IMG/VR virus record: IMGVR_UViG_3300021400_004213
Strand: one strand, 5' to 3'
From: an uncultured virus (IMG/VR IMGVR_UViG_3300021400_004213)
Taxonomy: Duplodnaviria > Heunggongvirae > Uroviricota > Caudoviricetes
Length of the DNA stretch: 64,000 nt
Shown: positions 2,925 through 14,801 of the stretch, piece by piece
Layout of the letters: each line of letters begins with the position of its first letter
How positions within the stretch are numbered: position 1 is the stretch's first letter
Position numbers and translations under genes: made by a program
Notes under the pieces: model-generated
Database searches by the model: none
Told to the model about the DNA's origin: nothing
Seen by the model: the letters and a program-made list of their open reading frames with translations, nothing else

Positions 2925-2972
2925 AGCAAAATACCTCCATGTATTTCCGTTCAAAATATTCCGATAAAATAA

Positions 2973-3013
2973 ATCAGCGGAGAACAGGCATATCACAGCC
3001 TGCCTCCGCTGAT
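2973..3013 (-). terminator. Intrinsic terminator after the giant adhesin gene
   Basis: ATCAGCGGAG...CTCCGCTGAT inverted repeat with a T-rich tail on the minus strand. Confidence 0.65.
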
Positions 3014-3042
3014 AAATTAATTATTCAGCATCATTTTTGCTG

Positions 3043-6000
3043 TTAATTACTCTCATTTCCTTGTGTTGAAGCCGTAGTATCAGCACCACTACCAGGATTT
3101 TCTCTCTCAGGTGCCTGACTCAGCTCGAACTCTGTAATCATTCCATCATCTGGAACAGTACCGTCTTCACCAATCAGAACAACCTTAAATGTAAATGTCT
3201 GATTCGGATCAGCATCATCAGGATTCGTCACATACTTCGAAACGGAAAGAGAACCATTCTTCAAAGTGTTCTTGAATACAGGAAGTTCACCCTCTTCGGT
3301 ATTCCAACCTGAAATTTTCTGAATCTTACCTGTACCACCACACGCTTCACAACCACGTACTAATGTGATATTGACATAAAAACCATTATCACTTGCATTA
3401 AGTTCAATACTTAAAGATACATACTGTCCAATTAACGTTTCAGGTAACATACTTTCCAAATCATTAATAATAGTTGTATCGCTTCCGTCATATGAAATCG
3501 AATCATTCGTAATCGACTCCAGATATGCTATCAAATCATTATCAGAAGATAACCCCTTAACATCTTTTATAAGATTAATGGCTGCATCCGAATTTGACAC
3601 AGGTATATCATTATCAGCAGCATCTTTACATATAGCTTCACCTGGCACTATCACAGCAGCACCTGTTTCTGAGTCTGTGTCAAATTCAATTGATAACGTA
3701 GTCTGATAATTTAAAATACCATCATCAGTACCATTACCACTACCATCACATACAGAACATACTTCTTCCTCTACAATCGGCGTAGCAGGTGTCTGACTGA
3801 AACTCAAAGTTCCGTCACCGTTATCATAAACGGTAACCTGGTATCCATAGACACTACCATCATAGTTCACAGTCGGATCAGATCCAGCCTGCTCACGAAT
3901 TGCATAATGATAGGTCTTACCAATATCAGCCTGTGTATACTTCAAAGCAGGGAACACAACCGTTCCATCAGCTTTGTTTGTAACAATCATGTCAGTCTCT
4001 TCCTCTGTTTCAGGATCCTTCTGCTTCATGATGTTACCTTCTTCATCCATCAGGACAAAGCTGAACTCGCCATCCTTCAGGTCACGGCCCTTCAGTGTCT
4101 TCCAAGCACGCAGCGTCAGTTCACCTTCCGCCTTATACTCGTTCACAAACTCAGGCTTTACGTCATCCTCAAGTGCTTCCTTCTCGTATTCACCAGTCAG
4201 GAAGTCAATTGTTACAGGAATCGGCTTCTCAGTCTCAGGATTAGTCGGAACGATAATCTTCGAAACTTCCTTGGTAATACCAAGAGTTCCATCTGCATTA
4301 TCAACTACCGTAACCTTTACTTCGTAGATAGATTCATCATAGATGTAACCATCCTTACCTGTATTGGTCTCACGTAAGTAGTAGACATGCTCGCCAACAT
4401 CCTTCTGCGTATAACGAATTGCACCAAACGTCACAGGAGCATTCGAATGCTCCACAGGACCCTCATTGGTCTCTTCGTCCACATATACAGTTTCCGTAGG
4501 TCTACTAGAAGTAGCTGTACGAATCGACTTAGATGTCATATTGCCATCTTCGCCTTCGACAAGCTCAAACAACTCAAATCTAAACTGATATGTCTTCAGT
4601 TCACGATTCTTCAAAGTCTTCAGAGCTTCCATCTGGAATCTGCCGTTTGCAGCATACGTATTTACGAAATCGGCTCTTGAAGTGCCATTCGGCTGAATCG
4701 TACCCGTAAAGGTATCCTTATCAGGCGTAAATCCAGCAGCCTCAGACTCTTTCACAGAGTAATTCACATATTCAGGAATCTCAGTAATATGAATCGTCTG
4801 ACCACCCTTAATCTTCAGAACACTATCACAAGTAACAGTGCCTGTAGCTACTTCCTCAGTAACAGTCTTCTTGACCATTTCATGAGTTTCAGGGTCTTCC
4901 TCTTCAACAACCTTTTCCTCTGTAATCACATACGGCATCTCATCTGTCACAGGAACAGCATCATCGCCAGCACCCTTGACAAAACTAAATGTCAACTCAA
5001 ACTCAACATCTGCAGAAGCATCTGTTGTATCCTTCACGGTCTTTGTAACATACATATCACCGAATGGATGATATGTATTCACCAATGTACGACCATCTTC
5101 AGCAACTTCTGTTGTATAAGACTTACCAGCAACCTCAGATATACGCTCTTCAACCGTATATTCTACTTCTTCACCGTTCATATACTTATACAAATTCTTG
5201 AAGCTATAAGACCAATTACCGTCTTTATCAGGGCGGATTGTCTGCTGCTGAATATAGTTTCCATTTGCATACAGGAGAACCTGGATGGCAGTCGGACGAG
5301 CATCCTCGTGACCTTCATCACCAACCCATGTCTTCTGTCCATCTACGCTAACACGTTCAGGCTCATGTTTATTTGTTACAGTAATAACGCCATCCTTGAT
5401 TGCGGAATAAGATGCTTTATAACCATCAATCGAATCTTCCTTGATCGTATAGATATAAGCATTTCCTTCAGGATCACAATAAGGAATGTTCTCAAACTTC
5501 ACTTCATATGGATCATCAGAAGCCTTCAGTGTCTTTGCAAGTCCTGTATCAACATCATTACGATACAAATGAAGTGTGATTTCCTCAGGGCGCTTACCAT
5601 CACGGTTATCACCGTCGTCCCAGACCTTCGTTACAACAAGGCTATATTCTTCCAGACCAACCTTCGTATAATCCTTACGAACAAAGCTGTTGCTCTCGGC
5701 CTCAGAACCCTGGATGCGCTTATCAATCGTCGTTGCTGTCAAATAAACATTGTTATACGCCATAGCGCTATCGCCCCATGCACCCTTCTGAGAAATATAC
5801 TCAGTAGCGGCTTCACCAGACGGAGCACGCATATTCACAATGACAACAGCAGACTCTTGTTCATCAAGTACAAAATCTGTACCATCAGCACGCTTAGACA
5901 TATCAATAGCAATTGCATGAACCTTTGCCATATCGCCAGTATAGCTTGTAGCAGGAACCCAAATTTCAGGGTCACTCAAGTTCATATTTGTCGGATTACC

Positions 6001-9000
6001 GATGTTCGGATTTGTCTCATCAGAAAGCTGCAGATTGTCAACCAAACTGTAATAAACAACAGGTGCACAACCAGCTTCGCGTAACTGAGAAACATCAACG
6101 CTAATCAATTCACCTCTCCAAGTTGCAGCATTAATATCAATCTCGTCATTACCTTGACCAGCCTTGAAGTTCTCCAAAGAATCATAAATAATCATATTCT
6201 TTGTCTGAGTATCTGAATCAGGCATCATACGCAGACGATACTGATAAATACCACCCGTATAAACAGTACGCTTATTCTGATCAGGTTCTTTGTAATACAA
6301 ACCTGAAGACCACCAACCATCACGATTGGTCTGAACTTCCTTCTGCAGAGATACTCTAGCAGCCGTCTCTACGTCCAGGTTTACATATGTACCTGCATAT
6401 ACAAAGCTCGGAGTATCGCGATTAGGATTCAAATCTGTCATTGCTTCCTTCTCGGCATCATCCTCAAATGCATTTGCTGTAACAACGTTATTATTCGTTG
6501 TCAAATCATCCAATTCACCCTTGTAATTCTCAACAGAACCAAGAACATCCTTGCTACTCTCAAAGGCAATGACGTTATGGATATTCTTACCATAGTCAGC
6601 CATCGAAACGAAATCATAAGTAGCTTCGAACGTAATTGTGATCATATCTTCATAATATGTCACATCACTTGGCTTATAAGTAGTCGTCACAGGAGTCAAA
6701 TCTGCTTCAACAACCAAAAGGGTTCTACCTGTACCCTTATAATCGCCAATGGTATATGCCTTGGTAATCGTATCCTTATCACGAAGTTTGATGGTATCCA
6801 TCAAAGGTGTAACACCCTTCGGAAGAAGGTCATACCAAATACCATGGTTTTCAGACTTCAATTCGCCGCTGGCAATAGCATCTTCATACGTAGCACGATC
6901 AGCAATAAAGCTTCTCTCCTCTACCTTACCAGTAAAGTGAACATGCACTAAATTGTTATCGTAATCTACTTCTTTGACACTATAATCTGCTGTCTTAGAC
7001 GGGAATACAGACAAGTCTGTTGTATAACCACGAAGGCTATCATATCCATCCTTTTCAATAGTCAGAATATGCGCATTCGGTGTGTGGGTATCTTCTGCAC
7101 CATAATCAACATCCATCTTTGCACCATTCCATACAGGCATCGACGGCGTATAATTATGTTCAAACAATCCAGTTACAACATTCCGAATCAAATCGGTCGG
7201 ATGTAATGTCACATTGACACGCAGGTCATAATGAATACCTGCCAAAGAAGACGTTACAATACTACGAATATTCGTCGTATCTGTCGGCAGAGGAATAATA
7301 TTCCCTTCAACAGCTTCGCCAGACACTAAAGTACTTACCTGGCTACCACTCTGCCAAGATACCGTAGCAACCTCTTCCCAAGTCTCAGAGTTATTTCTCT
7401 GAACCTCAATCGTCACATCAGGACGATGCGACAAATCATTATCAGTGCTGTACAAGAATGTACCATCACCAGCATACTTCGCGGTCCAAGAACCATCCTC
7501 ATTAATATTATGAGGAACACCATCCATGATGGAGAAGGTCGATACTTCAACAGACTTAAAGTCATAATCCTGAAGAGGAGTCAGCTTTGCACCATTTCGA
7601 ATCGGTGTCAAACCTGTATCTGTTGTCGTAACAGTAAGCGGACGTCTGAAGTAATTACTCTTAATACGAGAAGATTCAGCGGTAACAGGATCCTGCGGAT
7701 CATACGTCCACGGCATCTGATAACCAAGGGTATCAATCGTATAAGAAAGCTCTACGTCCTTACCATCTCTCAGATGATTCAATGCTGCAGGATAAATACC
7801 ATAGTACCCATTATCATCAATGAAATGATCATTATATGTATATGTGTACTTATGAGTATAATACGTCGGGTCGTTGTCATTACCATTCTTCCAAATCATG
7901 AAGTGTCCAGTAGGATCCTGCCACTTCGGATCAGAATAACTCCAACGTACCATACCATCCGCTTCAGCAGTAGTTACAAGCTGCGGGTCAACTTCACCAG
8001 TAGCCTTATTCTCGGCCTGTGGATCAACCTCAGTCAACGTATACTTCACCTTATTATGGAAGTCATAATTCGTATCAGGCTCAAACTGCGAAATTGGATA
8101 TACAACATCAGCGTACAGATAACCTGTACGATCACTCGTATAATTCTTCAGATACTCATTGTATACAGCCGTATAGCTACCATCACCATTATCGGTAACC
8201 TGCCAGTTACCACTGGAGAATGGACGGAACATCTGCTGATATTCATCATCAATCGTATCTTCGACATCAATGGTATACATCGTATTACCATACCGATAAG
8301 CCCACATATACCAAGAAACAACAACGAAGTATTCTTCCTCAGGCCACTTATTTCTGACTTCCTGCGGCATATCAGAAGCCTTCAGAATTTTCGTTTCGTT
8401 ATACTGACGCTTATTCGCTGCAGTAATCTTTGCTTCCGTATCAAACTGAGCCGTCACGGAATTAGAACGCAGTGCAATCAAATTACCAGCATGAGTTACA
8501 ACCTCGATGTATGCATCAAACGGAGCCGTCTCCTGCATATCAACAAGTTCATGAGGAATCAAATCATAGATACCAAACTCAATATAACCTTTGGTAGCAG
8601 CACTCATACGGCGAGTATTTGTCAATACATAATTGTCGCCAACAAGTTTCCAGTTGAAATCCTGCTTTGTGGAAGGATCTTCAGGATATGGAATAACCAT
8701 CGTACCATAATCCTTACCATCACGATTCTTGAAGATATAAGCAGGAACTGTGATCATGATGTCGCCAGCTTCATAATTATGCTCACCAGACAGAGCATAG
8801 TTTACACGCAGACGAACACGCTGCTTACTATCGTCACTTGGCTTAACGTAAAGAATCTCGTCGGAACCATTATCTACTGTATCCTCTGTCATCCAACGGA
8901 CACTAATAGATTCAATATTGGAACCATCCAACTGACGAGGAATTTCAGATTCCACACTGTCATCAGCAGCTTTCGCTACATCATTAACAAGATTTCTTGC

Positions 9001-10713
9001 AATCTCATTAGCAGTATTACCTTCGTTTTCAACTTCAGTAAGACCACTTTCATCTGCCAGTTTGTCAACAGCGGCATTTGTATCAACTGCTAATTTACCA
9101 TGCAAACCAAGAGCAGATACTCGACTCTTTACTACAAAATCAAGATCTGACATCTCTTCAAGATCAACAGTTGTTTCAGCCTCTGTTTCTGGCTCAGTCT
9201 CTTCCTCGCCAGCCTTTTCAACAAACGCAAACGGAGAGAAAGAACTTGTATTGAAGCTTACGCTATTGCGATCTGCATTGTAAATAAATTCAAGTTCTTC
9301 AATCTTACTTGTATCGGACTGCCAACCATCCACCAGATGAAGCAAAACTGCATCCTCAGGCAGCACAATACCGTTAATTACAACATGATAAACACTTGCA
9401 TCAGAATCAATATTCTTGATGTCGAATGCCTTATAAATAGCACGACCATTCAGATATTCATCAAGAGCTGTTAAAATAGCATCATCCTGACGAATAATTT
9501 CTGAATTATCACCGTAATCATACGTTTCAGATGCACGTTCCATAACACGAACGTTCACTTCTTGACCATTGATAATAGCCTTGAAATATGTTCCAGGAAC
9601 ATCTACATCCTCATAACTAGACGCTGCATAAGAAGACTCTGTTTCAATTGTTGCTTCTGTAACAGCTTCTGTTTCTGTTTCATCTTCAGCAACTGTTTCT
9701 CCCTGAGAAGCAGTCTCTTCCTGAGATACCGTTTCTTCCTGCGAAACTTCAGTCTCAGAAGACGTCTCATCACCACTTCCTGAACCGACGAAAACAGTTC
9801 TTACATCAGCATCATCTTCTGTAGTCTCAGCTTCAGCAGTCTCTTCAACAGCCTCAGTATCGTTAGTCACAGAAGAATCTTCCTGTGCTATTTCTACTGA
9901 ACCATCATCCATTGTTGTAAACACAGTGGTTTCTTCAGCTGCAGACTCTTCAATCGTCTCCTCAGTTGTCGTATCTTCAACTATTTCTTCTGTTTCAGGT
10001 TCTTCAGCCTTCTCAGCGAAACCAAACGGAGAGAATGTCTTCGTAGTGAAGGAAACCTCATGACGATCTTTATCATAGAAATATTCTATTTCTTCGATCT
10101 TACTTTCGTCATACTCCCAACCATCTGCAAAATGCAGGAGTACAGCATCCTCAACAGGATCAACATCCTTCAGAGTAACATAGTATGTGTAATCATCATC
10201 ATGTTCAGACGCATACTCGTCTTCGTAATCAATGTCAAACACATCATAGAGATCTCTATCTTCCAGATAATCTTTGATATCATCGATTACTTTCGTATCT
10301 TCTGCGACACGATCGCGATTTTCATCCGTGATTTCATACACATCATCTTCATGTTCCAATAAACGAGCCTTCACATCTTCGCCATTAATGACAGCATCGT
10401 TGTAAACACTTGTGTCCATTGGTTCATTCACTGTCTCAGGTTCTGCCTGAATTACATCCGATTGAACTTCAGTTTCATAAGAAACTTCTGTTTCAACAGG
10501 CATTCCACTTTCAGAATCTGACTCATCGATTACCTCCGAAACGAATTCTGGAACATACTCTTCAGAAGTCGACTCTGTTTCAATCTCACCAGATGGAACA
10601 GGTTCTTCGGCCCTCGTCAAGGATGGCGCAATTGTCGTCGCCACCATTAATACAGCCAAGAGCAAAGCCAGAAAGGATTTCTTTGGAATCTTTTCGTTCT
10701 TCCAATAACGCAT
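3043..10713 (-). CDS. Giant secreted adhesin-like protein (~2556 aa) with Cna-B and FctA/Spy0128-like Ig domains, no C-terminal anchor
   Basis: Start moved to MRYWKNEK (GGAGG RBS). Signal peptide, acidic N-terminus with a duplicated domain, Cna-B repeats ('VTKVWDDGDNRDGKRPEEI', 'GQKTWVGD..RPTAIQV'), FctA-like repeats ('KTLKGRDLKDGEFSF'). No LPxTG or TM segment at the end. Confidence 0.85.
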   Translation of the reverse strand: MRYWKNEKIPKKSFLALLLAVLMVATTIAPSLTRAEEPVPSGEIETESTSEEYVPEFVSEVIDESDSESGMPVETEVSYETEVQSDVIQAEPETVNEPMDTSVYNDAVINGEDVKARLLEHEDDVYEITDENRDRVAEDTKVIDDIKDYLEDRDLYDVFDIDYEDEYASEHDDDYTYYVTLKDVDPVEDAVLLHFADGWEYDESKIEEIEYFYDKDRHEVSFTTKTFSPFGFAEKAEEPETEEIVEDTTTEETIEESAAEETTVFTTMDDGSVEIAQEDSSVTNDTEAVEETAEAETTEDDADVRTVFVGSGSGDETSSETEVSQEETVSQEETASQGETVAEDETETEAVTEATIETESSYAASSYEDVDVPGTYFKAIINGQEVNVRVMERASETYDYGDNSEIIRQDDAILTALDEYLNGRAIYKAFDIKNIDSDASVYHVVINGIVLPEDAVLLHLVDGWQSDTSKIEELEFIYNADRNSVSFNTSSFSPFAFVEKAGEEETEPETEAETTVDLEEMSDLDFVVKSRVSALGLHGKLAVDTNAAVDKLADESGLTEVENEGNTANEIARNLVNDVAKAADDSVESEIPRQLDGSNIESISVRWMTEDTVDNGSDEILYVKPSDDSKQRVRLRVNYALSGEHNYEAGDIMITVPAYIFKNRDGKDYGTMVIPYPEDPSTKQDFNWKLVGDNYVLTNTRRMSAATKGYIEFGIYDLIPHELVDMQETAPFDAYIEVVTHAGNLIALRSNSVTAQFDTEAKITAANKRQYNETKILKASDMPQEVRNKWPEEEYFVVVSWYMWAYRYGNTMYTIDVEDTIDDEYQQMFRPFSSGNWQVTDNGDGSYTAVYNEYLKNYTSDRTGYLYADVVYPISQFEPDTNYDFHNKVKYTLTEVDPQAENKATGEVDPQLVTTAEADGMVRWSYSDPKWQDPTGHFMIWKNGNDNDPTYYTHKYTYTYNDHFIDDNGYYGIYPAALNHLRDGKDVELSYTIDTLGYQMPWTYDPQDPVTAESSRIKSNYFRRPLTVTTTDTGLTPIRNGAKLTPLQDYDFKSVEVSTFSIMDGVPHNINEDGSWTAKYAGDGTFLYSTDNDLSHRPDVTIEVQRNNSETWEEVATVSWQSGSQVSTLVSGEAVEGNIIPLPTDTTNIRSIVTSSLAGIHYDLRVNVTLHPTDLIRNVVTGLFEHNYTPSMPVWNGAKMDVDYGAEDTHTPNAHILTIEKDGYDSLRGYTTDLSVFPSKTADYSVKEVDYDNNLVHVHFTGKVEERSFIADRATYEDAIASGELKSENHGIWYDLLPKGVTPLMDTIKLRDKDTITKAYTIGDYKGTGRTLLVVEADLTPVTTTYKPSDVTYYEDMITITFEATYDFVSMADYGKNIHNVIAFESSKDVLGSVENYKGELDDLTTNNNVVTANAFEDDAEKEAMTDLNPNRDTPSFVYAGTYVNLDVETAARVSLQKEVQTNRDGWWSSGLYYKEPDQNKRTVYTGGIYQYRLRMMPDSDTQTKNMIIYDSLENFKAGQGNDEIDINAATWRGELISVDVSQLREAGCAPVVYYSLVDNLQLSDETNPNIGNPTNMNLSDPEIWVPATSYTGDMAKVHAIAIDMSKRADGTDFVLDEQESAVVIVNMRAPSGEAATEYISQKGAWGDSAMAYNNVYLTATTIDKRIQGSEAESNSFVRKDYTKVGLEEYSLVVTKVWDDGDNRDGKRPEEITLHLYRNDVDTGLAKTLKASDDPYEVKFENIPYCDPEGNAYIYTIKEDSIDGYKASYSAIKDGVITVTNKHEPERVSVDGQKTWVGDEGHEDARPTAIQVLLYANGNYIQQQTIRPDKDGNWSYSFKNLYKYMNGEEVEYTVEERISEVAGKSYTTEVAEDGRTLVNTYHPFGDMYVTKTVKDTTDASADVEFELTFSFVKGAGDDAVPVTDEMPYVITEEKVVEEEDPETHEMVKKTVTEEVATGTVTCDSVLKIKGGQTIHITEIPEYVNYSVKESEAAGFTPDKDTFTGTIQPNGTSRADFVNTYAANGRFQMEALKTLKNRELKTYQFRFELFELVEGEDGNMTSKSIRTATSSRPTETVYVDEETNEGPVEHSNAPVTFGAIRYTQKDVGEHVYYLRETNTGKDGYIYDESIYEVKVTVVDNADGTLGITKEVSKIIVPTNPETEKPIPVTIDFLTGEYEKEALEDDVKPEFVNEYKAEGELTLRAWKTLKGRDLKDGEFSFVLMDEEGNIMKQKDPETEEETDMIVTNKADGTVVFPALKYTQADIGKTYHYAIREQAGSDPTVNYDGSVYGYQVTVYDNGDGTLSFSQTPATPIVEEEVCSVCDGSGNGTDDGILNYQTTLSIEFDTDSETGAAVIVPGEAICKDAADNDIPVSNSDAAINLIKDVKGLSSDNDLIAYLESITNDSISYDGSDTTIINDLESMLPETLIGQYVSLSIELNASDNGFYVNITLVRGCEACGGTGKIQKISGWNTEEGELPVFKNTLKNGSLSVSKYVTNPDDADPNQTFTFKVVLIGEDGTVPDDGMITEFELSQAPERENPGSGADTTASTQGNESN

Positions 10714-10774
10714 AGAATCTTTGCCTCCTATCTTTAGATTTCTACATGTAGAGATACTTGTGGACAAACAAATA

Positions 10775-11031
10775 GAGCGGTAAACAGAAAACGACAGTTA
10801 CTGTCATCATCTGCTCACCGCTCGTAACTTCTCAGTCCGATGTCTTGATGTGACTTGCTATACTCTTTTTTTTCAAAAGATATACAGCTATGCTGGATTA
10901 TATAACATAATCCTTCGCGCCACAGACGTGTAGGTGCTGTATCCATCTTCGTAAAGCTACCACACTTTACGAATCCCGAAATGGACTTATCAGGTCTTAC
11001 GCTTTACACCGCCGTCTGCCATTCCATCGGA
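10775..11031 (-). promoter_or_regulatory. Structured 5' leader with terminator (riboswitch/attenuator-like)
   Basis: Multi-stem fold closed by TCCGATG/CATCGGA, then a long G.U-containing hairpin (10775-10823) with a U-rich tail before the adhesin RBS. Candidate promoter TTGATT-17-TAAAAT at 11097-11069. Confidence 0.55.
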
Positions 11032-11116
11032 TTTATACTCGTGAACCACAATATTCTATTGACACTACATTTTAACATGAAAAGTCTTAAAAATCAATAC
11101 ATCTTCCAATTATTCT

Positions 11117-13948
11117 TCAGTTCTGATCCTCTACATACCAGTAGATGTTCTCAGAAATTGGCATTCCGTTCTCGTTCGTGAACTCAATCTCAAACGTGAA
11201 TGTATCGTCCTTGTTTGCCTCGGTCACATCGGCGTTTTTCGTAACCTTCAAAACGCCTGGACGAGTTTTGTTATTAAACATTACGCCATCATCATCGTAG
11301 GTAACTTCCGCCGCTAATTTTGAATTGCCTGATGAAACAATCATATAATATCCATAATTTGCCATATCAGAATATGGACCATTTGGATAATATCCTTGCG
11401 ATGGTGAATATGCATAACTCTTATATAACACACTTAATGAATCGCCTTCAACATCAAATTCATCTACCAAATACTCTTGATCCTTCCCAGGCTGATAAGA
11501 ATACTGTCTCAATGCTGTCCTTGTATTAAAATCAGCACTATATGTCTGTGTATGCACTGCATCATGTGCACCCCGCCATATATAAAACTCACCACGAGGG
11601 TTCGTATACTTCACAGTCACATGTAACTTCTCAGCACCTGGAATCGTAAGCACATCAGTATAATACTGATTACTTACGTAATCGCCCTGCTTCTCACCAG
11701 CATCATTCAAATTATCAGTGTGTGAATACAACGTCGTTCCTTCGCTAAGCACATTTTCTTTCACAAGAACCCTAACTGTTTCTTCATGTGCATCATAATC
11801 CATACTATCATCATGAGGATCTATCTCACGAATAATATAAGTATGTTCTCCAAGTTCATCCCTTGTATATTCAATAGGGTCAAACTGGATGAAACCACCA
11901 TCAAGTACAGACTTTGTCTGTATCACATTACGGTTTTCATCAAGAAGTTCAAACGTATATGTTCCTTCCTTTGCAGGATGTCCATCTAACTTCTTTGTGC
12001 CTGTAAACTGTACCGTCACAATACCTGGCTGATACCTATTCCAGAATGTGGCTGCTGATTCTTCAAGAGCCTCGATCACGCCAGATGCATTTTCTTGCTG
12101 AACAAGCACCCATCCGTCAGGTGTAAGTTCATAGACTTGATATGACGTTCCTGCTGGAATGTCCTTAAATGTTGCCTTTTCACCAGCTTTAATCTGAAAC
12201 TCAAACTGACCTTCGTTCATTTGAACAGACGAATCACGTTTCTTCCAAACAGCTGTCAAAACAACATTTTCACTTGCATCATAAGTATTTGCAGGAATAA
12301 CACCACCATCAACATATGTATGACCTTTTCCATCGTCCCAATGATCAAACTCATACGTATAAGCAAAGAACTTATTATTTGGCAATACATAATCATTCCT
12401 AATAGGCAATGAAGTAACAGGACGCATAGCACCAGAACCATTTTCGCCAGCATCAAATGTAATATTATAACCTGGTGCATCCCATACCCATGTACCTGCC
12501 ATGCCATCTTGATAATTCGAAGCTAATACACTCGGTGCATACGGTCCATATTCACCATCGTTACGAATCCACATGCCTGTATATCGAACACCCTCATATT
12601 CCGTCGGAGGAACTGGTAAACAAGACGTATTATTATAATTACCTGATACCCAAGGGCCACCAGGACCTAATGTAACTTCTTGCAAAGAAGGACAATTCGT
12701 AAACAAATCATTCACAGAAGTGGCATTCACACAATTCACACCAGACATATTCAATGTTTTCAAAGAAGAACAATAATAAAACATCTCTGAAATATCCATG
12801 ACATTCGTTGTATCAATACCACGAACATCAAGATGCTTTAATTTTCCACAACCCGCAAACATCATGCGACATTGTTCCAAATTAGGTGTATTCCATGTAG
12901 ACATATCAACATCTTCTAATTGATTGCAATATGAGCAAAAACGAACAAGATTTACTATGCCATCTACTGTATCATCAGACCATGTCTCCAAACCAATAAT
13001 CCGTTTTAATTGAGACGAATAACCAAAAACTTCCTCAGCATTAGTCAGAGCAGGCATATCCCAATTTGATACATCAATTTCACGAACAGCGCTTGAATAA
13101 TTAAACATCTGTTTTATTGTAGTAACAGTATTTGAATGCCAACCTGGAATATATACATATGAACCCTTTGTATAATCACCATTTGTTTGCCTAAATGCAT
13201 TATCCAAAGACGTAACGCCATCTAAATTCCAATCAGCCGCATTTACAGTACCACCACCAAAAGCAAACATATAATATAAAGATGTCAATTTACCAAAAGA
13301 CCATCGAGGTATGTCCAAAACAGTCGTCCCTTTACGAGCATAAAACATATATATTACATTTTCCAAATTAGACCAATGCAAATCAGGCGCAATTAAATGC
13401 GCATTTCCTGAATGAAACCAACGATATGTATCTTTAACATTACTAACATTCCAACCTGTAATATTAATCACATCAATATCACAAGACTCAAACATTGCAC
13501 GCATGCTAGTAACAGATTCTACATTAAAGCTTTGCAGATCTAATTCACCAGCAATTTTACAACCGTAAAACATAGACGACATACTTGTGACATTGCTTGT
13601 GTCAAAACCAGATGCATCAAATGATACGAGATTTGATAAGCCATTAAACATGTTCTGAACGCCACCCGTACCACGAACAACACCATCAAATCGAACCGAT
13701 TTGATATCAGCCCTATAATCATACCAAGGCCAAGTATTACGCGTTGCGGCATCTGCCAAAACCTGCTCTGTTCCATCACCGATTATCAATTCATAATCAG
13801 ATGTAATGCGCCAATCTACACCATCGTATGTTCCAGACGCAATATCATCCGCTGCTTTTACCGTATGCGTCCCAAACAAGGCAAACAAACCAGCGCATAT
13901 CATAAATGCCAGCAACAAGCTTAATATACATTGTATTCCTTTCTTCAT
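11117..13948 (-). CDS. Secreted BspA/DUF285 LRR surface protein with Flg_new-like repeat and FctA-like domain
   Basis: Start MKKGIQ (GGAGGT RBS), signal peptide, 'FDTSNVTSMSSMF' repeats, 'YNITFDAG..LTAVW' repeat, 'GTKKLDGHPAKEGTYTFEL' FctA-like domain. No anchor. Confidence 0.85.
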   Translation of the reverse strand: MKKGIQCILSLLLAFMICAGLFALFGTHTVKAADDIASGTYDGVDWRITSDYELIIGDGTEQVLADAATRNTWPWYDYRADIKSVRFDGVVRGTGGVQNMFNGLSNLVSFDASGFDTSNVTSMSSMFYGCKIAGELDLQSFNVESVTSMRAMFESCDIDVINITGWNVSNVKDTYRWFHSGNAHLIAPDLHWSNLENVIYMFYARKGTTVLDIPRWSFGKLTSLYYMFAFGGGTVNAADWNLDGVTSLDNAFRQTNGDYTKGSYVYIPGWHSNTVTTIKQMFNYSSAVREIDVSNWDMPALTNAEEVFGYSSQLKRIIGLETWSDDTVDGIVNLVRFCSYCNQLEDVDMSTWNTPNLEQCRMMFAGCGKLKHLDVRGIDTTNVMDISEMFYYCSSLKTLNMSGVNCVNATSVNDLFTNCPSLQEVTLGPGGPWVSGNYNNTSCLPVPPTEYEGVRYTGMWIRNDGEYGPYAPSVLASNYQDGMAGTWVWDAPGYNITFDAGENGSGAMRPVTSLPIRNDYVLPNNKFFAYTYEFDHWDDGKGHTYVDGGVIPANTYDASENVVLTAVWKKRDSSVQMNEGQFEFQIKAGEKATFKDIPAGTSYQVYELTPDGWVLVQQENASGVIEALEESAATFWNRYQPGIVTVQFTGTKKLDGHPAKEGTYTFELLDENRNVIQTKSVLDGGFIQFDPIEYTRDELGEHTYIIREIDPHDDSMDYDAHEETVRVLVKENVLSEGTTLYSHTDNLNDAGEKQGDYVSNQYYTDVLTIPGAEKLHVTVKYTNPRGEFYIWRGAHDAVHTQTYSADFNTRTALRQYSYQPGKDQEYLVDEFDVEGDSLSVLYKSYAYSPSQGYYPNGPYSDMANYGYYMIVSSGNSKLAAEVTYDDDGVMFNNKTRPGVLKVTKNADVTEANKDDTFTFEIEFTNENGMPISENIYWYVEDQN

Positions 13949-14351
13949 ATTGAAACACCTCCATAAGCCTTTCATTCTTGTTTGTCCTATCAGATTAACG
14001 CCCTATAACTATTGACGCTTAACTATTCATAGTAAACATGCTCAACCTAAGCATAACCGAAAATGACTGATTTTTCAAGATATATTTCATATATTTCGAC
14101 ATTATCATCAAAAATCTTGATAACTAATTATCTATTTATTTCTACAACATATATAACATATATAACCACATTCTCTACACAATATATAAATTCGTGAAAG
14201 TTCTACAACTACTACACCTCTAAAAGCGAGGAGGTGATAATACATGCCTCTCTCACTTTCACGAGCGTGAGACAGAAACAATTGGCGTGAGATGAACATC
14301 TACTCGTCATTCACCACCATTTAAACTATAAAATGAGGTAATTACACTGAT

Positions 14352-14801
14352 ATGAAACATAGTAAAAAATCAAAAACTATGGCCATTATAACATTATTAA
14401 TAATAGCTATCGCTACAACACCATTAAAAACGCAGGCTAAAGAAGAGCCTGCTATGGATGCTGAATCTATTCAGATGATAAATATGATAAACACAGAAAG
14501 AGCCTCTCTTGGATTATCACAACTCCAAATTGACCCTATATTATATAATTACACAATAATCAGAGCTGCAGAAAGTACTCAAGTCTTTTCCCATACTCGG
14601 CCAGACGGAAGTCCATATTATTCTATAAATCCAAATTTAATTTGGGGCGAATTACTCGCATATGGATACGGCTCGGCGGATATGTCATTTAACGCCTTAA
14701 AGAATGATCCACCACATTACTACGTAATGACAAATCCGAACTTTAATAAAATTGGTGTTTATCATATTGACGATCACTACGCCATTTTATTAGGCTTCTA
14801 A
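14352..14801 (+). CDS. Secreted CAP/SCP-domain protein
   Basis: Signal peptide and 'INTERASLGL', 'FSHTRPDGS', 'HYYVMTNPNFNKIGV' motifs. Followed by a terminator at 14830-14860. Confidence 0.8.
   Translation: MKHSKKSKTMAIITLLIIAIATTPLKTQAKEEPAMDAESIQMINMINTERASLGLSQLQIDPILYNYTIIRAAESTQVFSHTRPDGSPYYSINPNLIWGELLAYGYGSADMSFNALKNDPPHYYVMTNPNFNKIGVYHIDDHYAILLGF

Follow-up and report, generated by a model that had tools for sequence, protein, structure and literature searches.

The window, by which we mean the whole analysed stretch of 64,000 nucleotides (IMG/VR record IMGVR_UViG_3300021400_004213), carries three neighbouring genes on its minus strand: P0003 (3-2924), P0001 (3043-10713) and P0002 (11117-13975). 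Each has a GGAGG ribosome binding site, an ATG and a Sec-type signal peptide of its own, the last recognized by eye. P0001 and P0002 contain whole or partial copies of the CnaB-like domain DUF7601 (PF24547). In CnaB-type folds a Lys of the first strand and an Asn of the last strand form an isopeptide bond, catalysed by a Glu. A six-frame scan of the whole window gave three N-halves and two C-halves of such domains and no further ones. There are no tRNA genes in the window, and its SHMT is 56-63% identical to that of five related MAGs.

Domains of the three proteins

The P0001 ORF spans 3043-10767, with the true ATG at 10713 placed 9 nt downstream of GGAGG; start and signal peptide occupy 10603-10713, and the protein has 2556 aa. 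Its one intact DUF7601 domain, already noticed in the preliminary description and here called D0, lies at 4654-5058 (residues 1904-2038, profile positions 2-116 of 116, Pfam E 3.7e-13). Among the window pieces only D0 covers the whole profile within one chain, and its loop holds an insert of about 50 aa at the site where giant relatives carry leucine-rich repeat (LRR) heads. Two FctA-like stalk domains (two stretches of PF12892) occupy 3778-4632, and a pair of CxxCxGxG motifs flanks a variable insert of about 150 aa at 3289-3777. The protein ends, as had been claimed, in an orphan N-half, which we call N1 (3118-3261). Within its last 70 residues, residues 2505-2538 match DUF7601 profile positions 1-33 only; the Pfam E of 1.3e-3 is below the Pfam cut-off, and a purpose-built N-half HMM gives E 1e-13. 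The reactive Lys of N1 would be Lys2511 (3235-3237, counting from the TTG at 10767). N1 is followed by a tail of some 25 aa (3046-3117) and the stop codon (3043-3045). Searching the ESM Atlas with the distal 1140 aa of P0001 returned unnamed clusters only, and a PDB sequence search with D0 gave no significant match (best E 0.27, pilin PitB). The gene is covered by RNA-library contigs from three studies. In close strains the contigs diverge from the window directly after N1, and the 3' end of P0001 may therefore differ or be fused there.

P0002 has 952 aa from its first ATG and 943 aa from Met10, from which a signal peptide can be read (13853-13948). A BspA-type LRR head made of DUF285/PARCEL repeats follows at 12668-13657 (PF03382 E 1e-34; TIGR02167 E 2.3e-28). 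The Flg_new repeat reported ahead of the C-half holds as far as a Flg_new-like beta domain goes (12263-12469, AF2 strands with pLDDT 88-96), although it did not reach E 0.01 in Pfam; PF09479 is present at the equivalent place in P0179, a paralogue of P0003. This domain leads into the internal orphan C-half, C1, which comprises strands D-G (12029-12247): residues 579-648 match profile positions 44-116 only (Pfam E 3.6e-12), with Glu616 at 12128-12130 and Asn646 at 12038-12040. An FctA/Spy0128-like stalk domain (11267-12028; PF12892 and fold search) comes next, with a CUB-like sandwich inserted at 11324-11740. A fold search with the P0002 model (residues 152-407 of the model) gave Z 13.8 for FctB (5ttd_A/3klq_B) and Z 9.5 for CUB (5fwt), and a PDB sequence search with the stalk gave no significant match (best E 0.38, a proteasome subunit). 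P0002 then ends in a second orphan N-half, N2, with strands A-C (11129-11266). It lies within the last 45 residues (908-950, profile positions 2-44 only, Pfam E 9.2e-6) and contains Lys913 (11237-11239); three further residues precede the stop (11117-11119). Both halves of P0002 are thus as originally described, and since C1 corresponds to positions 44-116 and N2 to 2-44, they meet exactly at position 44. Because an N-half consists of three strands, including a conserved terminal aromatic one, it is some 45 aa long and not a short tag. No Rfam match was found at 10600-14400 of the window.

Of P0003 the contig holds the first 974 aa: a signal peptide, two LRR blocks (PF03382 E 2.5e-95; TIGR02167 E 2.4e-134), and Flg_new and MucBP-like repeats. 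Like P0002, it thus has the DUF285/PARCEL repeats of BspA-type proteins. It aligns with P0179 at 52% identity, and P0179 carries a second type of C-half, C2, as well as LPATG (Gram_pos_anchor PF00746, E 1.8e-9). P0003 is expected to go on past the contig end in the same way, with C2, stalk and LPXTG. Other proteins that combine an acceptor half with an anchor are P0027, P0032 and P0051. P0001 and P0002 have neither an LPXTG-like motif nor a C-terminal hydrophobic anchor, in agreement with the preliminary description, and no protein with a terminal N-half is anchored in either of two sets (0/39 and 0/16). A Pfam scan of the 31 ORFs at 14-64 kb of the window gave no sortase family.

Single-chain relatives and the age of the split

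Related genomes encode single proteins of 4000-4800 aa with the order N1-(LRR head)-C1-FctA-N2-(LRR head)-C2. As one ORF, D0-FctA2-N1-(head)-C1-FctA-N2-(head)-C2, such a giant is present in 14 of 25 genome loci. One of them, P0059, is collinear at its residues 151-2007 with P0001, at 2187-2874 with P0002 and at 2946-3747 with P0179/P0003. The best 150 representatives include 47 balanced nested giants versus 16 terminal-N proteins. In the window the genes stand in the order module 2, 1, 3, unlike that of the giants. Some giants (L018, L024, L021) have a single nested N1-head-C1 between whole domains, and in L009 the natural chain is N1-head-C1-FctA-N2. Linkers that follow nested N-halves sometimes contain an LPXTG-like motif, as in L009; this was put down to chance, since 8 of 155 units have one compared with 3.2% of random windows.

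The preliminary description had allowed that homologues might run on past the stops with full domains, the split then being a truncation or an assembly artefact. The giants do run on. Yet the split forms have their own ribosome binding sites and signal peptides and make up an old clade, which speaks for gene fission and not for an artefact: in an 83-row tree the seven terminal-N1 proteins are one branch with support 99, with identities down to about 47%. The split architecture is also kept among relatives, 30 of 55 for P0002 stopping no more than 16 aa past N2, and 6 of the 8 examined for P0001 stopping 23-32 aa past N1; five long relatives of P0002 extend 350-700 aa beyond N2 without a C2. 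A metagenome scan yielded an independent contig (L026) that is 100% identical to the window and ends at the same base; its other 14 loci held no half-domains, and a first genome scan with a single protein as query found nothing. Two MAG loci (L014 and L007) were rejected as independent splits; their downstream ORFs have no start and signal peptide, so that they are probably frameshifts.

The residues needed for the bond are all there, spread over different chains. Orphan N-halves keep the Lys in 60 of 60 cases; orphan C-halves keep the Glu in 83 of 83 and the Asn in 76 of 83, as paired halves do. Lys913, Glu616 and Asn646 are invariant in all 46 rows of the P0002 alignment (A1). D0 apart, the pieces on the different chains jointly cover the DUF7601 profile.

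Proposed pairing of the halves

Taken together, these three neighbouring genes of a cattle-gut bacterium look like one giant surface adhesin made in separately secreted pieces. The pieces end in complementary halves of a self-crosslinking domain and probably join, and become covalently locked, once they are outside the cell. At the level of the genes the adhesin would have been divided into three secreted proteins, each break falling in the C-D loop of a DUF7601 domain (CnaB-like) of the stalk, at the place that the LRR head takes in giants. Following Sec export, N1, the Lys-carrying half of three strands at the C-terminus of P0001, would complete the Glu/Asn-bearing C1 of P0002. The N2 at the C-terminus of P0002 would dock in trans to the C2 of a P0003-type protein, itself presumably fixed to the wall by sortase through LPXTG. 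In each rebuilt domain a Lys-Asn isopeptide would form spontaneously and lock the chains, giving a covalent rod in the order wall-P0003-P0002-P0001 with an LRR head branching off at each joint. The middle place may be open to paralogues of P0002. This ordered assembly, running from P0001 through P0002 to a wall-anchored P0003-like base by two Tag/Catcher-like pairs, is the account towards which we lean.

Which N-half belongs to which C-half can be approached in several ways. By the bit scores of type models the half types are clear-cut (N1, 63 as N1 versus 27; C1, 114 versus 57; N2, 73 versus 25). Contiguous domains typed N1+C1 occur in five proteins and N2+C2 in two, while N2+C1 accounts for 1 of 363 contiguous domains; nine contiguous domains are typed N1+C2, which means that the specificity is not absolute. 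Tabulating candidate specificity residues for each half type gave no sharp picture. We also looked at covariation, learning contact columns from contiguous domains and applying them to nested pairs and to pairs made of a C-half and the next N-half across FctA. Nested N-head-C pairs covary (AUC 0.777-0.814, against 0.649 for a re-dealt null with a maximum of 0.707, and 0.831 for held-out real domains); the C-FctA-next-N pairs, at 0.598-0.62, show no covariation and do not rise above the null. The coupling score favours N1C1+N2C2 in 43 of 45 giants. For the halves in the window it is +3.5 for N1-C1 and -17.3 for N2-C1, and in 45 of 47 P0002-type proteins the protein's own C1 is better fitted by the N1 of P0001 than by its own N2. 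The test weakens under strict training, in which every domain typed N1, N2, C1 or C2 is removed: the favoured register is then ahead in 35-37 of 45 giants, and for the window the score of N1-C2 is slightly higher than that of N2-C2. Half types, contiguous domains and covariation across the head thus point to N1 pairing with C1 and N2 with C2, and not to P0002 N2 pairing with its own C1. Together with the conserved ends, the triad and the giants, this lends support to the earlier idea that a protein ending in a Lys-bearing half uses it to complete the Glu/Asn half of a second protein.

Among the alternatives, the one that survives best is that P0002 folds back on itself, N2 reaching over FctA to complete C1, so that the domain is circularly permuted. 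Proteins of the P0002 type would in that case be secreted LRR proteins that are free and self-contained, and only N1 would need a partner, for instance the C2 of P0003. Both halves do lie in one chain in all 32 of 32 P0002-type proteins, and the five long relatives mentioned above carry other domains, and no C2, after N2. In the window, strict training favours the sum N1C1+N2C2 at K 25 and 40 but the fold-back register at K 80. An AF2 monomer of P0002 residues 500-952 can be read both ways. The three strands of N2 have pLDDT 76-79; the Asn-bearing strand of C1, though invariant in the alignment, is left unplaced as coil with pLDDT below 50, which leaves the model without a confident closure in cis. 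The distance from Asn to Lys at the junction of FctA and N-half, 11-12 residues, equals that at ordinary rod junctions, and closure in cis would consequently seem to require a U-turn at both ends of FctA. Given also the pairing and covariation results above, we consider fold-back unlikely.

The reading first put forward, an anchorless head-to-tail polymer in which N2 enters the C1 of the next P0002-type protein, would give a sortase-independent LRR fibre capped by P0001. Such a chain needs one acceptor and one donor per subunit, which is what P0002-type proteins have, and the WxL pilus is predicted to contain, within the fibre, an adhesin that is both donor and acceptor (10.64898/2026.10.17.759780). 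There are, moreover, eight P0002 paralogues, several apparently on one 284-kb contig. Their connectors are 84-85% identical while their heads share 39%, so the proposed swapping of LRR heads is supported. The polymer itself does not fare so well: the type and covariation data oppose N2 with C1, the module is single and not tandem in giants, and there is a dedicated acceptor, C2, on a protein with an LPXTG anchor. With two half-type pairs and LPATG on P0179, an ordered, wall-anchored assembly fits better than an open polymer, which ranks behind fold-back in our estimation.

Less probable again is pairing in trans by fold complementation with no covalent bond, or halves that merely cap neighbouring domains. 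BsaA fibres hold without the bond until heated (10.1101/2024.11.04.621531). Against this stands the triad, whose conservation in orphan halves equals that in whole domains, a fact with no easy explanation if the bond does not form. Finally, that the ORFs are the decayed or mis-assembled remains of a giant, their orphan halves idle, might be argued from the giants being the majority form, the pseudo-splits in MAGs and the gene order of the window, but it is very improbable given a ribosome binding site, ATG and signal peptide on each piece, stops conserved in 30 P0002 and 6 P0001 relatives, one old terminal-N1 clade, the retained triad, and the identical contig and RNA-library coverage.

Comparison with known assemblies and possible meaning

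The engineered CnaB-type splits SpyTag/SpyCatcher and SnoopTag/SnoopCatcher, like the window system at sequence level, divide one isopeptide domain and its reactive residues over two polypeptides, and SnoopTag shares with it the Lys on the donor and the Asn and catalytic Glu on the acceptor (PMC6539128). In the engineered 'polyproteams' two orthogonal pairs in series set the order, as N1:C1 and N2:C2 would (PMC6539128). Unlike Tag/Catcher donors, which are strands of 12-13 aa, the donor in the window is natural and a 45-aa half of three strands, its ligation being predicted only, and the cut lies in the C-D loop of the head insertion instead of beside the terminal strand (PMC6539128).

Domain insertions in CnaA/CnaB pilins (RrgA, Cpa, GBS pilins) correspond to the giants, in which the LRR head is nested in a stalk loop (PMC12617251). 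An example in the same survey is Lys190/Glu263/Asn305, with Lys in the first strand, a catalytic Glu and Asn in the last strand (PMC12617251). Nested pilin insertions have both halves around the insert in one chain (PMC12617251), whereas in the window the break comes at the loop and the halves are on separate ORFs and different proteins. The word 'split' is absent from the text of this survey (PMC12617251), and in the open-access literature searched we found no natural example of a split CnaB or isopeptide domain.

BsaA fibres of Clostridium perfringens are built from secreted subunits by fold complementation with a spontaneous intermolecular Lys-Asn bond and a Glu, as proposed here (10.1101/2024.11.04.621531); archaeal threads (PMC9715654) and A-ENA sporesilk (PMC13111695) appear to be comparable. 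These are chains of identical subunits with a TasA-like or other fold and a single N-terminal donor strand (10.1101/2024.11.04.621531). In the window the donor is a C-terminal, three-stranded, CnaB-like half, its partners differ, and the assembly would be heteromeric, of defined order and sortase-anchored at its base. In the Elr/WxL pilus of Enterococcus faecalis, likewise Gram-positive, an LRR-type adhesin combines a variable payload with an attachment module that is invariant; the joints are made by fold complementation and the base is held by LPxTG and sortase. Its fold, however, is WxL, the donor-strand exchange is non-covalent, and a membrane chaperone, ElrE, takes part (10.64898/2026.10.17.759780). 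In the window no chaperone gene is evident and a covalent joint is predicted. Sortase-assembled pili (SpaA, RrgB, Spy0128) have FctA and CnaB stalk domains and covalent subunit links, as here. Their links, however, are made by a pilus sortase joining the LPXTG of each subunit to a pilin Lys; P0001 and P0002 lack this sorting signal, which P0179 has.

We give about even chances to the wider proposition that two orthogonal natural split CnaB-like pairs program the ordered, spontaneous covalent assembly of an adhesin of about 5000 residues, with interchangeable middle modules that let one stalk carry different LRR heads and with sortase needed for the base only. Should the pieces ligate in the predicted way, SpyTag and SnoopTag would have a counterpart in nature, with two ready orthogonal pairs and larger split points located in a loop. 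If true, it would also be a third Gram-positive route to multi-protein surface fibres, in addition to pilus sortases and donor-strand exchange. The scheme would account for the export of gut adhesins of 4000-5000 residues in manageable parts, and for the shuffling of binding heads without rebuilding the stalk. In rumen and gut genomes, many 'anchorless' LRR proteins of the BspA type could then be read as plug-in modules.

A stalk domain cut in two

Three large genes lie on the minus strand of the window in the order P0002 (11117-13975), P0001 (3043-10713) and P0003 (2924 to the contig end). P0001 and P0003 start with ATG, 8-9 nt behind GGAGG. All three products begin with a Sec-type signal peptide, as read by eye, and between P0002 and P0001 there are a promoter-like and a terminator-like site (consensus matches only). 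P0001 and P0002 both lack LPXTG-like motifs and C-terminal membrane anchors. In P0001, Pfam recognises two CnaB domains, one whole DUF7601 (residues 1904-2038) and two FctA domains behind a long distal stretch without annotation; in P0002 it recognises an LRR head of DUF285/PARCEL type, part of a DUF7601 and a single FctA domain. A fold search confirmed the P0002 stalk domain as FctB/Spy0128-type (Z 13.8).

A survey of isopeptide domains (PMC12617251) classes DUF7601 as CnaB-like and predicts a Lys/Glu/Asn triad for it. When protein pieces were scanned as fragments with its profile of 116 positions, residues 579-648 of P0002 matched positions 44-116 (E 3.6e-12), its last 45 residues positions 2-44 (E 9.2e-6), and the C-terminus of P0001 positions 1-33 (E 1.3e-3). 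In P0002 the pieces thus meet exactly at position 44, in an order reversed relative to the profile (the Glu/Asn-bearing C-half, C1, precedes the Lys-bearing N-half, N2), and P0001 has one N-half, N1, in surplus. The half domains reported in the preliminary description are therefore borne out; a six-frame scan with our own half-domain HMMs found no others in the window. Orphan halves keep the reactive residues as well as whole domains do: Lys is present in 60/60 orphan versus 176/177 paired halves, Glu in 83/83 versus 177/177, and Asn in 76/83 versus 171/177.

Several other features of the window deserve mention. Inside the FctA-type stalk domain of P0002, just ahead of its last strand, sits a CUB-like beta-sandwich (11324-11740, residues 746-884; Z 9.5 to the CUB domains of Kremen, PCPE-1 and neuropilin in a fold search), which is absent from the shorter paralogues P0014, P0016, P0017 and P0018. 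A stretch of P0001 (3289-3777, residues 2331-2493) consists of two CxxCxGxG motifs, whose spacing presumably recalls a DnaJ zinc finger, around an insert of about 150 aa. The motifs stand back to back in the 97%-identical P0060, and the stretch is missing from, or exchanged in, contigs of three other runs; it is thus a hypervariable cassette in an extracellular stalk. A small secreted protein of the CAP/SCP family is encoded divergently, directly upstream of P0002 (14352-14801). A phage- or mobile-element-like block (43074-63893) contains genes for a D5-type primase, a DNA polymerase-like protein, a tyrosine integrase, a ClpP-like head protease and an SNF2 helicase, together with an RNA-repair set (RlaP nucleotidyltransferase, Thg1-like and polynucleotide kinase-like proteins). 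The window has no tRNA genes.

Single-chain relatives and the age of the split

Scanning species genomes with an alignment of P0002-type sequences gave 25 loci, all from gut or rumen MAGs of Bacillota and Coriobacteriia. In 14 of them a single ORF of 3000-4800 codons follows a common grammar: distal region, whole DUF7601, two FctA, N-half, LRR head (400-970 aa), C-half, FctA, then N-half, second LRR head (600-800 aa), C-half, FctA and further whole domains, in some cases with an LPXTG-type signal at the end. The stalk domain is therefore a host for inserted heads; inserted domains are a known property of CnaA/CnaB domains, according to the survey (PMC12617251). A low-complexity linker rich in Gly, Asp, Asn and Thr lies between each N-half and its head (e.g. 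8300-8500 and 11000-11150 in locus L012). The site of this linker is that of the stop, RBS and signal peptide in the split forms.

One giant, P0059, is tiled collinearly by P0001 (151-2007), P0002 (2187-2874) and the P0003 paralogue P0179 (2946-3747), with the visible end of P0003 itself at 2964-3465. Judged by this tiling, the window reads as a giant cut just behind two N-halves and ahead of the heads, each piece having an added signal peptide.

The C-half/FctA unit is widespread, with 603 matches at E 1e-30 or better among 1.84 billion representatives. The best 150 of these include 47 balanced nested giants, 13 proteins of P0002 type, 17 with an orphan C-half plus anchor, and three with an N-half at the end after a nested unit. 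Among the last, P0407 has a clear signal peptide and a stop 5 aa behind the N-half, P0416 is suspected to be a frameshift product of locus L014, and P0413 may be truncated. The giant gene is interrupted directly behind N2 in two MAGs (L014:2162-15351 and L007:3-7069); the downstream frames have neither start codon nor signal peptide, and frameshifts or assembly errors at the low-complexity linker are likely.

Thirty of 55 P0002 relatives surveyed have one C-half, then one N-half, and a stop at most 16 residues later. Of the remaining 25, one has a 25-aa tail, two have tails of roughly 80 aa and one is a fusion; five run on for another 350-700 residues, six are stalk proteins with several domains, three have only C-halves, and in seven no halves could be detected. 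Eight P0001 relatives were compared, chosen as lacking an LRR head among the 120 matches listed; six end 23-32 residues behind that N-half, and the other two carry tails of 102-120 residues. The seven terminal-N1 rows group together on one branch (local support 99; FastTree, 83 D0-to-N1 units, D0 being the whole DUF7601 of P0001), and identities to P0001 fall to about 47% over the last 685 residues. Hence the split behind N1 is old and maintained, and the halves are not a truncation artefact. A separate metagenome contig matches at 100% identity and stops at the base where the window's contig stops. RNA-library contigs of three studies, one of them on the sample that is the probable source, cover the P0001 gene at 95-100%, which places it in RNA libraries and is not proof of transcription.

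Some variation is seen behind the N-halves. In P0008, P0012, P0013, P0015 and P0011, the 350-700 aa behind N2 consist of other domains, either CnaB plus DUF6273 or another LRR head, with no C-half among them; these would be donors with extra payload at the loop position. Leftwards of about 3046-3100, contigs from runs X4 and X10, 95-99% alike over P0001, diverge just behind N1, within the tail, that of X4 continuing for 2021 nt of different sequence; at this place close strains may carry a different neighbour or a fusion. An LPTG-like reading of the loose end is probably due to chance.

Which half pairs with which

Two registers can be considered. In register (a) every N-half joins the C-half on the far side of its head (N1 with C1, N2 with C2), which in the window gives trans joints P0001-P0002 and P0002-P0003. 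In register (b) C1 pairs with the next N2 over FctA as a permuted domain, and N1 with C2; P0002 would then be closed on itself. HMMs built from 18 giants separate the half types cleanly: the end of P0001 is typed as N1 (63 bits against 27 for the next type), the halves of P0002 as C1 (114 vs 57) and N2 (73 vs 25), and that of P0179 as C2 (99 vs 52). Ordinary contiguous N1+C1 domains occur in five representatives (gaps 28-52 aa) and contiguous N2+C2 in two; among 363 contiguous domains, typed pairs are N1C1 in 15, N2C2 in 16, N1C2 in 9 and N2C1, the pair that self-closure of P0002 needs, in just one. Loci L018, L024 and L021 have a lone nested N1-[head]-C1 flanked by whole domains.

Covariation across the heads points the same way. 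MI-APC on contiguous domains couples strand A (Lys) with strand G (Asn) in parallel register, and strand B with strand D. For 40 contact pairs taken from these domains, the AUC is 0.831 in held-out real domains and 0.814 in 155 nested N-[head]-C pairs (weighted; 0.777 unweighted, subsamples 0.768-0.785). Halves re-dealt among proteins give 0.649 (maximum 0.707), and the 354 C-FctA-next-N pairs fall below this, at 0.62 weighted and 0.598 unweighted. The AUC for register (a) exceeds that for (b) by 0.074 (0.038-0.110; bootstrap over 45 giants). A log-odds score on the contact pairs, which ranks true above swapped halves in 172/195 cross-validated cases, favours (a) in 43 of 45 giants (33-43 with other numbers of pairs). 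For the window it is +3.5 for N1-C1 and -17.3 for N2-C1; with the C2 of P0179 it is +0.5 for N2-C2 and -9.2 for N1-C2. In 45 of 47 P0002-type proteins, C1 is fitted better by the N1 of P0001 than by their own N2.

When contiguous domains typed N1, N2, C1 or C2 were left out of training (283/363 kept), (a) was still ahead in 35-37 of the 45 giants. Applied to the halves of the window itself, the sums then point to (a) when 25 or 40 pairs are used and to (b) with 80, the latter in agreement with self-closure, and N1-C2 scores slightly above N2-C2. Pairing specificity may therefore be partial, and N1 could fit C2 too.

An AF2 model of P0002 residues 500-952 (46 sequences; mean pLDDT 82.9, pTM 0.47) is confident for the Flg_new-like and FctA domains and gives four strands of C1 at pLDDT 71-82 and N2 as three strands at 76-79. 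The expected last, Asn-bearing strand of C1 is coil with pLDDT under 50, yet invariant in the alignment, so the model contains no confident closure in cis. At FctA-to-N-half junctions the Asn-to-Lys spacing is 11-12 residues, as at ordinary rod junctions, and a straight rod would thus fit better than a fold-back. We regard closure of P0002 on itself, the main rival reading, as improbable.

Anchoring and a possible assembly

None of 39 proteins ending with an N-half has an anchor, nor does any of 16 in the representative set. An orphan C-half with an LPXTG-type end is found in P0179, P0027, P0032 and P0051, the last three with an acceptor of C1 or C2 type. P0179 begins with a signal peptide, LRR blocks and Flg_new, continues with orphan C2, one FctA, a whole domain and two more FctA, and closes with LPATG and a membrane span (Gram_pos_anchor, E 1.8e-9). 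It shares 52% identity with P0003 across 674 aa, and by eye the final 40 visible residues of P0003 are the same in both; by this kinship P0003 would also have a C2 acceptor half and an anchor.

We consider a trans-ligating system of three pieces somewhat probable. After export, N1 of P0001 would complete C1 of a P0002-type protein, whose N2 would complete C2 of a wall-anchored P0003-type protein, and a Lys-Asn bond would form in each rebuilt CnaB-like domain. What is observed is the anatomy, its conservation, the homology to giants, the half types and the covariation across heads; docking in trans, the bond, the acceptor and anchor of P0003 and the exchange of middle modules are inferred. The mechanism proposed in the preliminary description, in which half of one protein completes that of another, was right in kind; its architecture was not. 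Instead of an open, anchorless polymer, the N1:C1 and N2:C2 types, the covariation across heads, and C2 with LPATG in P0179 point to an ordered and anchored assembly.

Such a system would be similar in principle to SnoopTag/SnoopCatcher, with Lys on the donor (PMC6539128), and to the exchange-and-lock of BsaA fibres (10.1101/2024.11.04.621531), and in overall logic to the WxL/Elr pilus, with its LRR adhesin, fold complementation and LPxTG base (10.64898/2026.10.17.759780). It is a member of none of them, being set apart by its CnaB-like fold, a C-terminal half domain as donor, different proteins as partners, a set order and natural origin. In the open-access literature searched, no account of a CnaB-type domain split in nature came to light, and the word 'split' is absent from the isopeptide domain survey (PMC12617251).

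In eight P0002 paralogues mean head identity is 39%, while C1 is 85% and N2 84% identical. The middle modules may thus be interchangeable, and the resulting rod would be the rod of the giants, with one head branching at every joint.
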